Part shown: one piece after another, positions 2,270 through 58,018 of the stretch
Numbering within the stretch: position 1 is the stretch's first letter
Layout: each line of letters starts with the position of its first letter
DNA from: Candidatus Latescibacterota bacterium
GTDB taxonomy: Bacteria > Latescibacterota > UBA2968
Reading direction: 5' to 3'
DNA length: 64,000 bases
Assembly: GCA_965222605.1 (NCBI GenBank)
Contig: OZ244960.1
Span: 4,384,001 to 4,448,000 of the forward strand
The notes under the pieces: generated by a model
What the model was told of the DNA's origin: nothing
The model's database searches: none
What the model saw: the letters and a program-made list of their open reading frames with translations, nothing else
Made by a program: the position numbers and the translations under genes

Positions 2270-3082
2270 TTACAAATTGTCCAATACTGCGCGCAATTGC
2301 CGTACGCCTTTTAGCATTAATTCCGGCGATCCCCAGTGTTCAATACTCACATTGCCGGTATAACCGTCTGATAGGACCATTTTGAGCAGGTCTTCGTATT
2401 GCATATTGCTTTCGCGAATGGGGTCCAGTTCTTTATCGGGATTGGGCTTGACGTGCAGATGGGTGATCCGTCCTTTAATCTGTTCATATCCGTCGGGTAC
2501 GGCTTGTTCGCCACATCCAACGCCGTTGTTCACATCCCAGCAAAAGCTAAATCCCGTTGTATCGCCCAGGGCGTCGGCGACCATTCTCGCTTCCGCGCAA
2601 CTGCCGGCAATGGTCGCGCCTTCATTTTCCAGTGATAGGGTGACGCCTTCGCGTTCGGCCGTTTTGGCAATGGGTTCGAGAAATGGCACGATGACATCGA
2701 GATAATTCTCAACGCCGGGTCGATTTTCCCGGTCTCCTTGTCTCCGATTGGGATTCCACAGGGAAAATCCGCGGATGACGGTTGTGTTAAACGCTTTTGC
2801 CAGTTCGATCATGCGGTCAAACATGCGCTGGTGTCCGGCTTTTTCTCGGTCGCTGTCGTGCGCGCATTTGCCCACGGGCGAGCCAACGGACATAACGGTC
2901 GCGTTATACTTTGCCAGTACGTCCTGGACGCGCTTCAATTCGTCGTTGTCGATTTCCTGTACGCGCTTGCCCCAGATGCCGCCGCGCAGTTCAATCCCCG
3001 TTGCACCCGCTTCTACGCCCAGGCGCACAGATTTATCAAAATCGGCTTTGTCGATTTCATCTGCAAAATAGCACAGTTCCAT
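2270..3082 (-). CDS. Sugar phosphate isomerase/epimerase (xylose-isomerase-like TIM barrel)
   Basis: FADEI start; LENE, WDVNN, HLHVK, SIEH metal ligands. Confidence 0.8.
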   Translation of the reverse strand: MELCYFADEIDKADFDKSVRLGVEAGATGIELRGGIWGKRVQEIDNDELKRVQDVLAKYNATVMSVGSPVGKCAHDSDREKAGHQRMFDRMIELAKAFNTTVIRGFSLWNPNRRQGDRENRPGVENYLDVIVPFLEPIAKTAEREGVTLSLENEGATIAGSCAEARMVADALGDTTGFSFCWDVNNGVGCGEQAVPDGYEQIKGRITHLHVKPNPDKELDPIRESNMQYEDLLKMVLSDGYTGNVSIEHWGSPELMLKGVRQLRAVLDNL

Positions 3083-3131
3083 CCCTTCCCCCTAATAAGT
3101 GGTCAACGTGACTTGGTGCCATATCATATAA

Positions 3132-3260
3132 GGGAATTATATACTTTAATAACCGTCAGGCTACGAGTATATTTCTTGCTTCTTTGTGCATTGCCACAAT
3201 ACTTGCTGGTCTTACATGCACTCCACAAGCGTAAATTTCGGGCATTCCAACCGTATTATT
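3132..3260 (-). ncRNA. Predicted TnpB omegaRNA scaffold (3' part; 5' boundary uncertain)
   Basis: Overlaps the tnpB 3' end. Typical TTTACGCTTGTGGAG..GTAAGACC..GAAGCAAGAA layout with a GTGCAT/ATGCAC stem, followed by an ATATACT..AGTATAT hairpin. Confidence 0.6.
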
Positions 3261-4346
3261 GCGAACATTTATCGCCGCGTTTATGTCTCTGTCATGCTCT
3301 GTAAAGCATTCTGGACACGTCCATACCCTGACGTGTAATGGCATATCGTCAACTTTATGACCACATAAAGAGCACGTCTTTGACGACGGATAAAAGGTAT
3401 CCAATTTCACTATGTCACGCCCATACCAATCGGCTTTGTAGCACAAAAAGGACACAAACTGTCCCCATGAGACATCGGCGATTGCTCTGGATAGACGCCT
3501 GTTCTTCAGCATATTTTGTATTTTGAGACTCTCTACGCCTATTGCTTGGTTCTCGTCAATAAGCATTTTTGAGAGTTTATGCTGAAAATTACGCCTCACA
3601 TTGGCAATCTTTGATTGTATCTTTGCCACTTTAAGTCTTGCTTTGTCTCTGTTCTTTGACCCTTTTTTACGTCTCGATAACACTCTTTGAGTACGTATCA
3701 GCTTCTTATATAAGGAATCAAATACTCTCGGATTTGCTATTTTGTCGCCATCAGACGTAATAGCAAAGTGGTTGATACCGAGATCAATGCCTATCTTTGC
3801 TTTGAGTGGTTTGAGTTGTGCTATTGTCTCAATGACTGATATAGAGACAAAATACCGACCACATGTGTCTTTGGACACAGTGGCACTGCGTATCTCACAT
3901 TCTTTTGGCAGTGGCCTGTGATAATTCACTTTTATGTCGCCGTCTATTTTTTGTAGCTTAATACCTCGCTCTATGAGACAAAAATCATTGTGCCTGTAAT
4001 ACGCACTCTGGCGAGCATACTTGCTCTTAAACTTAGGCTTTCCTGCTTGACCCTTGAAAAATCTATTGAAAGCTGTGTTGAGATTCCTTAATGCTTGCGT
4101 CAATGGTATCCGCAACACGTCATTGAGCCACAACTTGTCTGTTTCTTGCTTCAAAAGCGTCAGGTCTCTCGATAATTGTGTAATTGAAAGAGACTCGTTG
4201 CTTTCACGATATGCCGATTGTTTTTTGTCCAGTGCCCAGTTATAGACATATCGGACACAACCGAATGTCTGTGAAAGTGACAAACACTGTGCTTTGTTAG
4301 GATAGAGGCGATACTTATATGCCTTATATATAGCCACCTTTTTCAT
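3156..4346 (-). CDS. tnpB: RNA-guided endonuclease TnpB
   Basis: N-terminal KAYKYRLYP; RuvC-I GIDLG, RuvC-II VESL, Zn finger CSLC/CPEC, RuvC-III DRDINAA. Catalytic D-E-D intact. Confidence 0.95.
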   Translation of the reverse strand: MKKVAIYKAYKYRLYPNKAQCLSLSQTFGCVRYVYNWALDKKQSAYRESNESLSITQLSRDLTLLKQETDKLWLNDVLRIPLTQALRNLNTAFNRFFKGQAGKPKFKSKYARQSAYYRHNDFCLIERGIKLQKIDGDIKVNYHRPLPKECEIRSATVSKDTCGRYFVSISVIETIAQLKPLKAKIGIDLGINHFAITSDGDKIANPRVFDSLYKKLIRTQRVLSRRKKGSKNRDKARLKVAKIQSKIANVRRNFQHKLSKMLIDENQAIGVESLKIQNMLKNRRLSRAIADVSWGQFVSFLCYKADWYGRDIVKLDTFYPSSKTCSLCGHKVDDMPLHVRVWTCPECFTEHDRDINAAINVRNNTVGMPEIYACGVHVRPASIVAMHKEARNILVA

Positions 4347-4352
4347 AGTATA

Positions 4353-4381
4353 AATATACATAAAAACAATACGTTGTGCAA
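4353..4381 (-). promoter_or_regulatory. sigma70 promoter for tnpB (probably leaderless mRNA)
   Basis: TTGCAC-17bp-TATATT ending 6 nt before the ATG. Confidence 0.55.
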
Positions 4382-4451
4382 CAAAAATACACATCAATGG
4401 TTACTAAAATATATAATTCCCTTATTTTTGATTTTTCATTATCATGAGCGT

Positions 4452-4772
4452 ATGAATGAACAGACACGCAAAAAAATTCTGCAATCCACACCGCACCAGA
4501 AGGGGATTCGCAAGGTCGATAGAAAACGCCTGCTCGCGCAATTGGCCCGCGCTGAGCCGCCGCCCGATTACGATCGCTATATGCGATCCAAATCGTGGCA
4601 AATTAAAAGGCAGAAGTTTCTCGCCCATTACAATTGCCAATGCGTTCTGTGCGGTAGCAAAGAGCATTTACACGTCCACCACCTGCACTATCAGACCCTG
4701 GGCAAAGAGCGCGTGGAAGATGTGATTGTTTGCTGCAGGCGGTGTCATTTTATTGAACACTTTAAGAAGTGA
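4452..4772 (+). CDS. Small HNH endonuclease
   Basis: YMRSKSWQIKR, CVLCG..LHVHHLHY..LG.E..D...CCRRCH. Confidence 0.85.
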   Translation: MNEQTRKKILQSTPHQKGIRKVDRKRLLAQLARAEPPPDYDRYMRSKSWQIKRQKFLAHYNCQCVLCGSKEHLHVHHLHYQTLGKERVEDVIVCCRRCHFIEHFKK

Positions 4773-4783
4773 TCCAGTGTTTT

Positions 4784-4809
4784 GTAGGGGCGGGTCCCCG
4801 TGCCCGCCC
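4784..4809 (+). repeat. GTAG-type REP element
   Basis: GTAG followed by the palindrome GGGCGGGTC-CCC-GTGCCCGCCC. Confidence 0.65.
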
Positions 4810-4837
4810 GCAAGTGGAATTATTTCCGGAGATTTTC

Positions 4838-6118
4838 ATGCCGAATATTATCATTATTACCACGCACGATACAGGGCGGCATTTTCGGTGTTATGGTATT
4901 GATACGGTACACACGCCTGCGATTGATGCAATTGCCGAAGAGGGATTCAAATTTACCAATTATTTTACGACGAGTCCGGTGTGTAGTCCCAGCCGGGGGG
5001 CTATGCTTACGGGACGCTATCCGCAGAGCAATGGTTTGATTGGGCTGACGCATTCGCCCTGGGATTGGTGTTTTAATGAAGGGGAGCGACACCTTTCGCA
5101 TATTTTGCGCGATGCGGGCTATCACACGGCTCTTTTTGGTTTGCAACACGAAGCCTCTAATATTGATGATCTGGGTTTTGAAGCGACTTTTGCACAGCGC
5201 GATGAAACCGGCCGCCGCGCAAACGCGCTTGTGGTTGCCCAGGCTCTGGCCGATTTTCTCAAAGCAGGTGGTGTGTCCAAAACGCCATTCTACGCGCAAG
5301 TTGGTTTTTTTGAGACCCACCGCCCGCACGATTTTGGCGATGTTGAACCCGATGATAGCAAAGGTATTGATGTGCCGCCTTATCTAATTGATGACGAGAC
5401 GTCGCGACGAGAACTCGCCCTGCAACAAGGCGCGATCCGTCGCGTTGATGAGGCTGTTCAGATTATTACCGATGCATTGAGGGAAAGTGGTCTGGAAGAT
5501 GATACCCTGCTGGTCTTTACGGTTGATCACGGTATTGAATTTCCCAGGGCTAAGTGGTTTTGCTATGATGCAGGCATTGGCGTTGCATTGCTTATGCGCT
5601 GGCCCGGCGGAGGTGTTCGAGGTGGACAGACCTGTGACCATCTGCTCAGCAATGTCGATTTTTTGCCTACGCTTATGAATCTCATACAGCATCCCATTCC
5701 CGATAATGTGGAGGGCTTGAGTTTTGCCAGTGTGTTCAAAAATCCCGATGCGGAACCTGCGCGAGATGCTGCCTTTTCCATTTTTCAGGGTAGTGATAGT
5801 CGGAGCATTCGCACCGGTCGCTACAAGTTTATTCGCAATTTTAGTCCGCGGCGCCTGATAGATGTGCCCGTGGATATGACCGATCCTCCAACGCCGCGCA
5901 TCAAACAACCCGTGGCGCAACTCTACGATCTGGAAAAAGACCCGAATGAATTTGAGAATGTCGCCCAAAAATCCGAATACCGAGATGTTTATAACGCATT
6001 GAGCCAGCGCCTGTGGCAATGGATGGAAGATGTAAATGATCCCTCGCTCAAAAGTCCGATTCCCACGCCGTATTATTGGGAGGCGATGGCAGAATATCAC
6101 CAGAGAAAGGAAGGGTAA
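4838..6118 (+). CDS. Sulfatase (formylglycine-dependent)
   Basis: PNIIIITTHD, CSPSR..LTGRYP, DHG. Confidence 0.92.
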   Translation: MPNIIIITTHDTGRHFRCYGIDTVHTPAIDAIAEEGFKFTNYFTTSPVCSPSRGAMLTGRYPQSNGLIGLTHSPWDWCFNEGERHLSHILRDAGYHTALFGLQHEASNIDDLGFEATFAQRDETGRRANALVVAQALADFLKAGGVSKTPFYAQVGFFETHRPHDFGDVEPDDSKGIDVPPYLIDDETSRRELALQQGAIRRVDEAVQIITDALRESGLEDDTLLVFTVDHGIEFPRAKWFCYDAGIGVALLMRWPGGGVRGGQTCDHLLSNVDFLPTLMNLIQHPIPDNVEGLSFASVFKNPDAEPARDAAFSIFQGSDSRSIRTGRYKFIRNFSPRRLIDVPVDMTDPPTPRIKQPVAQLYDLEKDPNEFENVAQKSEYRDVYNALSQRLWQWMEDVNDPSLKSPIPTPYYWEAMAEYHQRKEG

Positions 6119-58000: not shown

Positions 58001-58018
58001 AAAGTATATAATTCCCTT
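58001..58018 (+). repeat. Solo copy of the tnpB-element TIR
   Basis: AAAGTATATAATTCCCTT is identical over 18 bp to the reverse complement of 3130-3147. Confidence 0.7.

Follow-up and report, generated by a model that had tools for sequence, protein, structure and literature searches.

A tnpB element of a Latescibacterota bacterium whose predicted guide RNA scaffold appears to end in the inverted repeat of an IS1595-family insertion sequence

In a 64,000-nucleotide stretch of a Candidatus Latescibacterota genome (assembly GCA_965222605.1, contig OZ244960.1, positions 4,384,001 to 4,448,000; hereafter the window), we found a tnpB gene enclosed by terminal inverted repeats (TIRs) of IS1595 type. 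The 3' end of its predicted guide RNA (omegaRNA) scaffold appears to be built from the right repeat, with the guide beginning at the element edge, and we consider it fairly probable that scaffold and repeat have co-evolved rather than met by a chance nested insertion. TnpB is the ancestor of Cas12, and bacterial TnpB is understood almost wholly through IS605 and IS607 elements, whose scarless excision explains the use of a guide read from the flank.

The element at 3132-4423 would be a non-autonomous derivative of an IS1595-family insertion sequence (IS), that is, of a DDE-type, inverted-repeat element making 8-bp duplications, and its only cargo would be an ISDra2-like tnpB with its omegaRNA. 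Transcription from the tnpB 3' end would cross the right repeat and continue into the flank. Compared with IS605-type relatives, the scaffold would have lost the GC-rich TnpA-binding hairpin and the ...GUCAA tail; its new end would be a hairpin with the inner repeat as the 3' arm, followed by the repeat-tip tail AAUUCCC. The repeat tip would pair with the stem-1 loop GGAAU, giving a pseudoknot just before the guide, as in TnpB and Cas12 RNAs. TnpB would bind this scaffold, about 125 nt long and with its final hairpin and pseudoknot strand supplied by the repeat, and would cut DNA with the first 16-20 flank bases after CCC as guide. The IS1595 transposase of another copy would move the element in trans. 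We infer the existence of an omegaRNA with these ends, its binding by TnpB, the cleavage and the transposition in trans.

The sole gene of the element is an intact tnpB; there is no transposase gene, and neither the list of open reading frames (ORFs) nor Pfam gave a further ORF with a family match inside 3132-4423. The product matches HTH_OrfB_IS605 (PF12323), OrfB_IS605 (PF01385) and Cas12f1-like_TNB (PF07282), all above the Pfam cut-offs, and guided_TnpB of NCBIfam (346 bits, cut-off 100); its score for IS200_TnpB, 417.8 bits, is slightly below the cut-off of 425. Its best natural relative of solved structure is ISDra2 TnpB (8h1j, E 1.4e-78 over residues 8-383). Residues D188, E272 and D354 and cysteines C325, C328, C344 and C347 are invariant in 25 aligned homologues, and from the known motifs and the alignment to an ISDra2-derived chain we take them to be the RuvC D-E-D residues and the C4 zinc finger. 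The element itself does not belong to IS200/IS605: its ends are an inverted repeat, the right end is ..AATTCCC whereas that of relatives is ..GTCAA, and no Y1 TnpA match was found. Assignment to IS607 was also rejected, as the element lacks both a serine recombinase and GG-type ends. The own genome holds one copy of the element. It also holds at least 23 matches to the window TnpB at E <=1e-30, mostly genes of 377-379 amino acids with 35-39% identity, so canonical TnpB families are abundant beside this single repeat-bounded copy.

The arrangement is shared by a small clade. When 61 relatives and then 168 genomes of the phylum were searched, with the clade defined as the loci at E <=1e-120, nine loci in eight genomes were obtained, which form three subgroups, all belong to the window's own genus and show 50-59% identity to the window; no member outside this genus was found in the scan of the 168 genomes. 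All nine end in ..GTATATAAWTCCC and then diverge. A recognisable left repeat is present in eight of them, with the tip duplicated in L008 and altered in L010, and none was found in L029. Since the repeat occurs at all nine loci, a one-off nested insertion is argued against. At the left end of L008 (genome G019) the extra tip is partial, GGGAATTATAT being followed directly by GGGACTTATATAC. Relatives at 42-51% identity come from Streptomyces, Nocardia, Chloroflexota, Bacillota, Vreelandella and Myxococcota, together with L013 of the same phylum. Their right end consists of GAAGCAGGAA, a stem-loop, GGAAUCCCC, a GC hairpin with a UUUA-type loop and ..AGGAAGUCAA (..GUCAA), which is the IS605 layout and matches stem 4 and the tail of ISDra2. 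Among 160 more distant loci, the repeat end was found only in two that duplicate L012 and L008. In a quick maximum-likelihood tree of 66 rows, the repeat label needs one change (support 74; 96 and 99 for the two subclades), compatible with a single origin of the repeat-bearing clade.

Closer homologues are known as proteins alone. The metagenome proteins P0003-P0008, one of which is labelled at source as coming from a Gemmatimonadetes metagenome-assembled genome, are 65-75% identical to the window protein, and their C-termini, ..EARNI(L/P).., would encode the window's GAAGCAAGAAAUAUAC. The EARNI.. C-termini of P0003-P0018 suggest the same 5' arm of the hairpin described below. A single-protein scan of genome contigs confirmed nothing, and a metagenome scan with alignment A2 gave 80 loci, none above 50% identity and thus no new clade member. 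A pattern scan of viral contigs gave no match; tblastn against plasmids gave no clade member, the best match being 47.7% identical.

The letters and coordinates that the earlier note had given for 3260-3132 of the minus strand, including GGAAT at 3248-3244, are all present. On this strand GAAGCAAGAA (3182-3173) is followed by ATATACT (3172-3166), CG, TAGCC, TGAC, GGTTA, TTAA, AGTATAT (3145-3139), AATTCCC (3138-3132) and TTATATGATATGGCACC. With at most one change, the motif GAAGCAAGAA also occurs in 118 of the 160 more distant loci. For the last 54 nt of the element, the terminal hairpin is the fold of minimum energy (-10.8 kcal/mol, z -3.07, 2 of 200 shuffles as good). In all nine clade members, the minimum-energy fold after GAAGCA(A/G)GAA is a single hairpin whose 3' arm lies within the right repeat, which supports the suggestion of that note that the terminal stem is partly built from the TIR. 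The tail after the hairpin is 7 nt (AAUUCCC) in the window and subgroup B or 10 nt (UAUAAAUCCC) in subgroup C. Against 300 dinucleotide shuffles, the z-scores of the nine terminal modules were -2.0 to -5.4. Left ends of the same length from six clade elements gave -0.20 to +1.46, with none of the six below -1, and of 22 ends from 11 repeat-bounded elements that lack this TnpB, one was below -2. Since the left ends and the TnpB-less repeat elements lack the hairpin (21 of 22 ends in the latter), it is an addition on the tnpB side rather than something inherent in the repeat.

The inner repeat differs by subgroup (GGUUAUUAA, GGCCGUUUA, AGGAUCGUCUU, GGUUACUCU), and the 5' arm, which is not repeat, varies between subgroups in step with it. 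A duplex swap test ranked the own-group repeat first among the partners of the 5' arm for seven of the nine sequences. The repeat at all nine loci, a 5' arm that tracks the inner repeat of its subgroup and the absence of the hairpin elsewhere agree with the earlier proposal of co-evolution instead of chance nesting. The proposed pairing of ATATACT with AGTATAT stood in part: the outer stem of seven pairs is complete in four of nine sequences (the window, L007, L008 and L009) and has one mismatch in a fifth (L006) in a MAFFT alignment; compensatory change was lacking.

The hairpin might instead be a DNA or transcript signal, either an extra inverted transposase-binding site or a terminator or stabiliser of the tnpB message. 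The 5' arm does resemble a third, tip-less copy of the inner repeat, and the tnpB stop codon TGA (3158-3156) lies in the hairpin loop. However, 21 of 22 ends of transposase-bearing copies and miniature inverted-repeat transposable elements (MITEs) are without the hairpin, so the transposase needs none. No T run follows the hairpin, only AATTCCC and a variable flank, and the succession of hairpin, 7-10-nt tail and flank copies the ISDra2 order of stem 4, pseudoknot strand and guide. We regard such a signal as quite improbable.

The pseudoknot can be compared with that of ISDra2. In the account of the ISDra2 omegaRNA in PMC10097598, positions -6 to -2, the strand that precedes the guide, are paired with -102 to -106; positions -5 to -3 are Watson-Crick paired with -103 to -105, and the edges -6 and -2 are non-canonical. 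In the window, L007 and L008, the loop GGAAU faces the tail AUUCC-C with five pairs, in the register of ISDra2 and of canonical relatives. The complementarity of terminal ATTCC to upstream GGAAT, pointed out earlier, thus lies exactly at -6 to -2. The canonical set comprised 67 relatives with a findable stem-1 pentaloop and GUCA tail. Their loop is GGRCU, and in 63 of the 67 its positions 2-4 face -3 to -5 as G-C, R-U and C-G. Three of these relatives have a fifth loop base other than U (A, A and G), and all three have its Watson-Crick partner at -6. Between loop position 4 and -5, the canonical clade has C-G where the window, L007 and L008 have A-U, so that both sides have changed. The Gly-Met codons of the loop align with Gly-Ile of the ISDra2-derived chain, which agrees with homology of the loop site. 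On these modelled pairings, the pseudoknot GGAAU:AUUCC is likely to form.

The rest of the scaffold is also consistent with a structured RNA. Stem 1 is 97.8% paired over the nine clade sequences, with a GC-to-CG swap in four. Double-sided changes occur at one pair of stem 1, four of the six pairs of the internal outer stem and one pair of the inner stem. The covariation score of the scaffold was 0.208 versus 0.087 for shuffles, none of 500 scoring as high, and pairing fell from 81.5% to 31-42% when the partners were slid. Covariation was found in these scaffold stems, but neither in the outer stem of the terminal hairpin nor, within the clade, in the pseudoknot.

It is very improbable that these pairings are functionless chance complementarity in AT-rich palindromic sequence with TATATA cores. 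The repeat tip does hold a self-complementary TATATA, and the whole 131-nt stretch folds no better than shuffles (z -1.54, 18 of 200 shuffles as good). A 5-nt complement is expected somewhere within about 130 nt and is not improbable alone; its weight comes from its position, in a homologous loop and register, and from the comparison with relatives. Moreover, all nine terminal modules have z <=-2 and the controls do not, and subgroup C pairs a GC-containing segment of the inner repeat instead of the TATATA core.

The ends of the element are fixed by uninterrupted sites. In the empty sites of sister genomes (L214-L217, L220), ..GAAAAATCAAAAATAA is followed by 42 bp and then by TTATATGATATGGCA... 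The end of the window's left flank, ..CAAAAATAA, precedes these 42 bp and TTATATGATATGG.. follows them, and in the window GGGAATT...AATTCCC stands in their place. An inverted-repeat search had given arms of 27 nt at 3128-3154 and 4399-4425 with 93% complementarity. Four bases of each arm are flank that matches by accident; with the true ends at 3132 and 4423, the real inverted repeat is 23-25 nt. A reading in which the extra A/T at the ends of the arms is an IS630-like TA duplication was rejected, as the empty sites fix the ends at GGG/CCC and relatives duplicate 8 bp.

As the insertion replaced 42 bp of its target, no target duplication flanks the window copy, and the 8-bp duplication of an IS1595-family element is absent here. 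In L007, L008 and L009, empty-site homology restarts directly after ..AATTCCC, and in these and the window the flank beyond the right end aligns collinearly with the empty site, beginning with its first base. All four duplication-less clade copies comparable with uninterrupted sites had taken the place of target DNA (42 bp for the window copy, 1,196 bp for L007, 778 bp for L008, 933 bp for L009); L007 and L008 share one neighbourhood with different junctions. L006 has the duplication TTTGTTAA; its empty site was not found in five genomes. L010 has a duplication of 8-11 bp and L011 a 9-bp direct repeat offset by 4 nt from the left tip; the junction of L012 is ambiguous, falling inside a short direct repeat.

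With the element edge placed exactly behind CCC, a flank-derived guide would start with TTATATGATATGG, in line with the earlier proposal that the guide starts at the element boundary; the predicted 20-mer is unique in the genome. The target-adjacent motif (TAM) had been placed in the opposite flank (..CAAAAATAA). This did not hold, because 42 bp were replaced and that flank never adjoined the guide-matching DNA, whose 5' neighbour in the uninterrupted site is ..AAAAAGATG. In an element that duplicates 8 bp, the duplicated bases would form the start of the guide, so that the TAM would lie 5' of the left duplication copy. The guide-matching DNA of subgroup B is immediately preceded by GATAT in L006 (read from the left flank of that copy), CATAT or TATAT in L007, CGTAT in L008 and AATAT in L009, with TAT in four of four and ATAT in three of four. 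The corresponding five bases end in TAT in none of seven TnpB-less elements with duplications. Left flanks of canonical relatives are WTCAT, YTGAT or TTAT, and the TAT of subgroup B, at four sites, looks like their ..NAT TAMs. The pattern is absent in the window (..GATG) and in subgroup C. The DNA missing from all four duplication-less copies had stood directly 5' of the guide-matching flank, on the TAM side, where it separated the right-end junction from what is now the left flank. This could arise if insertions next to a TAM gained a homing advantage, or if TnpB attack on the copy of TAM plus duplication beside the left end selected deletions there. It is a doubtful further step that the TnpB lineage exchanged IS605, a single-strand and scarless host transposon, for a DDE element of IS1595 type, remodelled its guide RNA at the 3' end on the repeat thus acquired and now influences where such elements persist.

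As judged by sequence, the repeat of the element is that of an IS1595-family IS. A degenerate 25-nt pattern of the repeat matched only the two element ends in the 6.34-Mb genome (control matches, 0), and its 13-nt tip GGGAHTTATATAC occurs in 19 of the 21 genomes of the genus (control matches, 3 in total). In genome G016 there are 33 forward and 36 reverse tip matches (69), mostly as facing pairs about 1.24 kb apart. One such pair (L035, G016:C1:516605-518240) encloses a 312-amino-acid ORF with DDE_Tnp_IS1595 (2.8e-40) and Zn_ribbon_IS1595, which scores 185 bits for the NCBIfam IS1595 transposase (cut-off 75) and has 36 matches in G016. The window's tip is identical to that of the copies bearing an IS1595 transposase, and its inner repeat is similar to that of the G016 IS (GGGAATTATATACTT..AACC). 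The tip is common to the transposase-bearing copies of G016, G015 and others and to MITE derivatives. Among 12 repeat-bounded elements looked at, the 8-bp duplication is perfect in 7 and near-perfect in 2 more. The ends presumably place the element close to the ISNwi1 group of ISfinder. Members of that group have ends like ggnnatTAT, 8-bp repeats and passenger genes. Copies of the cognate transposase (>=72% identity) were found only in G016, with a fragment in G012, among the 21 genus genomes. The window copy is probably stranded, because no cognate transposase was found in its own genome.

Some observations on the repeat family stand apart from this argument. The IS1595-family IS of about 1.24 kb has some 30 copies in G016, and about 20 of the 36 transposase matches, 94-98% identical, have one in-frame TGA, which could be a shared defect or a form of recoding. 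Genome G010 has 183-bp MITEs with the same tip at L038, where the 8-bp duplication is TCCTTTAA, and at two further places. It also has a 2.74-kb element with this tip (L039, G010:C1:2874381-2877519) and a perfect 8-bp duplication, TTATTTTT, which carries an IS607-type serine recombinase (NCBIfam 170 bits) and then a long tnpB-like ORF. L039 is possibly a true nested insertion, a second and different TnpB-bearing unit within an IS1595-type repeat pair. The own genome has three tip copies beyond those of the element; one, at window 58003-58016, is solitary (AAGTATATAATTCCC, then a T run), with no partner nearby.

Several points weigh against a co-evolved, functional scaffold end. The clade comprises nine loci of one genus, about five independent lineages, and its monophyly is weakly supported (74). 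In subgroup C, four of the seven outer-stem pairs are unpaired and pairing lies further inside. No outer-stem pair changes on both sides, because the outer 13 nt of the repeat are invariant. The duplex swap test fails for L012 and L029, both mis-split by the fixed 24-nt cut. The pseudoknot has one G-U in L009 and one mismatch in L006; in subgroup C (four of nine) GGGGA faces AAUCCC with two Watson-Crick pairs and one G-U; and no double-sided change occurs in it within the clade. Stem 1 as drawn closes a loop of 5 nt, tighter than the 19-nt loop of ISDra2, and because so short a loop is sterically tight, all five pairs may not form together. The loop is also coding sequence (Gly-Met codons), so protein constraint acts on it too. 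Rfam gave no family match within 2500-5500 at E up to 1. The RNA-library contigs included one on the element, covering 3526-3705 only, inside tnpB, where DNA carry-over is possible. Besides the missing target duplication and the missing cognate transposase, the best IS1595-family gene of the own genome is 35% identical to the G016 transposase and has other ends, and a further one is broken.

Part of this would suit a decayed cargo, namely an IS605-type solo tnpB that inserted into an IS1595-type MITE, or was captured by one, lost its scaffold end and no longer has a usable guide, the hairpin being a leftover or an accident. The canonical last hairpin and ..GUCAA tail are missing, the copy is single and without cognate transposase, an internal stop interrupts two of the nine clade genes, the RNA-library contigs show none of the predicted RNA, and a nested IS607 unit within a repeat pair exists in the genus (L039). 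Decay is nevertheless unlikely, as the arrangement is kept in nine of nine loci across subgroups 50-59% identical, with seven intact ORFs and invariant catalytic-motif columns; the 5' arm differs by subgroup yet stays complementary to its own inner repeat; and the loop matches the new tail in the canonical register. Table 1 gives the coordinates of the features discussed.

Table 1. Features of the tnpB element and its predicted omegaRNA (window coordinates)
Feature	Position	Strand	Remarks
Whole element	3132..4423	-	1,292 bp, GGGAATT...AATTCCC; ends set by alignment to empty sites of five sister genomes (L214-L217, L220)
tnpB	3156..4346	-	396 amino acids from ATG, intact; Pfam and NCBIfam matches
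Left terminal inverted repeat	4399..4423	-	GGGAATTATATATTTTAGTAACC..; inverted-repeat search and genome pattern scan
Right terminal inverted repeat	3132..3154	-	also 3' arm of the terminal hairpin and 7-nt tail of the predicted omegaRNA scaffold
Stem 1	3239..3253	-	CGGUU / GCCCG; pentaloop GGAAU (3248-3244) is the predicted 5' pseudoknot strand
Internal scaffold stem	3186..3221	-	GUGCAU ... AUGCAC; encloses GUAAGACC and an inner CC..GG stem
Conserved single-stranded motif	3173..3182	-	GAAGCAAGAA; at most one change in 9/9 clade members
Terminal hairpin	3139..3172	-	AUAUACU-C-GUAGCC-UGAC-GGUUAU-UAA-AGUAUAU; minimum-energy fold, z -3.07 and -2.98
Tail	3132..3138	-	AAUUCCC; AUUCC (3137-3133) is the predicted 3' pseudoknot strand, scaffold positions -6 to -2
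Predicted guide	3112..3131	-	TTATATGATATGGCACCAAG; from the first flank base, flank collinear with empty sites from there

The surroundings of the insertions were also considered. The gene downstream of the element (2270-3082; xylose-isomerase-like TIM barrel, Pfam) has orthologues in all 21 genus genomes. The 42 bp replaced in the window, as seen in L216 and L220, contain by eye TTGACT about 17 nt upstream of TATGAT in front of this gene, and it looks as if the insertion removed its apparent -35 box. The DNA replaced by L009, L007 and L008 was viewed in L230 (1848-2900), where it covers most of a 350-amino-acid ORF without Pfam match, beside a C-5 cytosine methylase fragment, and in L249 (723-2291), where it contains small ORFs next to an AAA_21/AAA_15 ATPase. 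This suggests that the DNA lost in L009, L007 and L008 was not neutral spacer but belonged to restriction or defence-type neighbourhoods. Just upstream of the element, an 81-amino-acid ORF rich in cysteine and histidine (window 4422-4667, minus strand) has a stop codon that abuts the left end; it has no Pfam match.

The intergenic region also occurs as a second, unrelated haplotype with short repeats of the GATTCGTATA type (L211, L218, L219, L221). It is present in 8 of the 21 genus genomes, those matching only to query base 804, and is the major allele in two metagenome runs (X3, X7). An allele in X3 that bridges 3093 to 4431 with 101 other letters (depth 36.4) was considered as a clean empty site and proved to be this second haplotype. 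The contrast in read depth between the element (6.9 / 9 / 44) and its flanks (about 36 / 89 / 100-170) mixes strains and species and was not used as evidence.

The closest known system is ISDra2 TnpB with its omegaRNA (IS200/IS605; 8h1j, 8bf8/8exa), the nearest natural protein of solved structure with the same domain set. As described for ISDra2 in PMC10097598, the RNA runs from the tnpB 3' end into the flank, and a hairpin is followed by the -6 to -2 strand that pairs with an upstream loop. Unlike ISDra2, the window element ends in DDE-family inverted repeats and not in TnpA hairpins, and has no Y1 tnpA; its last hairpin is AT-rich and made of repeat, and its tail is AAUUCCC instead of a ..UCA-type end. 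Its relatives, unlike IS605 elements, make 8-bp duplications. With the IS1595 family the element shares the repeat tip of transposase-bearing copies (G016, G015 and others), which show 8-bp duplications and MITE derivatives; it differs in lacking a transposase and in carrying an RNA-guided nuclease whose predicted RNA uses the repeat.

TnpBs with inverted terminal repeats have been described before. Altae-Tran et al. (2023, PMC10691335) report prokaryotic TnpBs of this kind with the TnpB 3' end <=250 bp from the transposon end, as well as solo TnpBs that share their ends with copies bearing a transposase, which points to mobilisation in trans. The DDE family named there for association with TnpB is IS630, and a 2026 review names ISL2, IS630 and IS1031 (PMC13565253). 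In the accessible part of PMC10691335, IS1595 appears only in a supplementary profile list, and its DDE branches are not described as having hairpin and pseudoknot re-wired to the repeat. A full-text literature search, judged by title or abstract, found no report of an IS1595-TnpB association and no relevant paper on ISNwi1, though an IS1595 branch may be contained in the additional files of PMC10691335. For the reRNAs of Fanzor1 and Fanzor2*, repeats and duplications have been proposed as part of the guide scaffold (Yoon et al. 2023, PMC10711439). Those Fanzors are eukaryotic or viral and belong to other transposon superfamilies, whereas the window host is a bacterium; they fold a fixed duplication into the scaffold, whereas the duplication of the window type is variable and would enter the guide; and Fanzor1 reportedly has no pseudoknot, whereas in the window its partner is apparently kept. 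DDE-associated inverted-repeat TnpBs are thus already known; what is new here, as read from the sequences, is a bacterial IS1595-type case in which canonical sister clades expose the re-wiring of hairpin and pseudoknot.

In conclusion, the element offers a compact and well-bounded bacterial case of a nuclease on a cut-and-paste DDE element, whose guide RNA has apparently been re-fitted to the inverted repeat, in parallel with what has been proposed for eukaryotic Fanzors. The canonical relatives and the repeat-bearing clade form a natural before-and-after pair, which may indicate the dispensable parts of the scaffold and how the pseudoknot strand is re-coded. The 41-nt terminal module and the 1.3-kb element are of handy size for engineering. 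The finding also raises the question of what use an RNA-guided nuclease would be to a transposon that leaves duplications and double-strand breaks.

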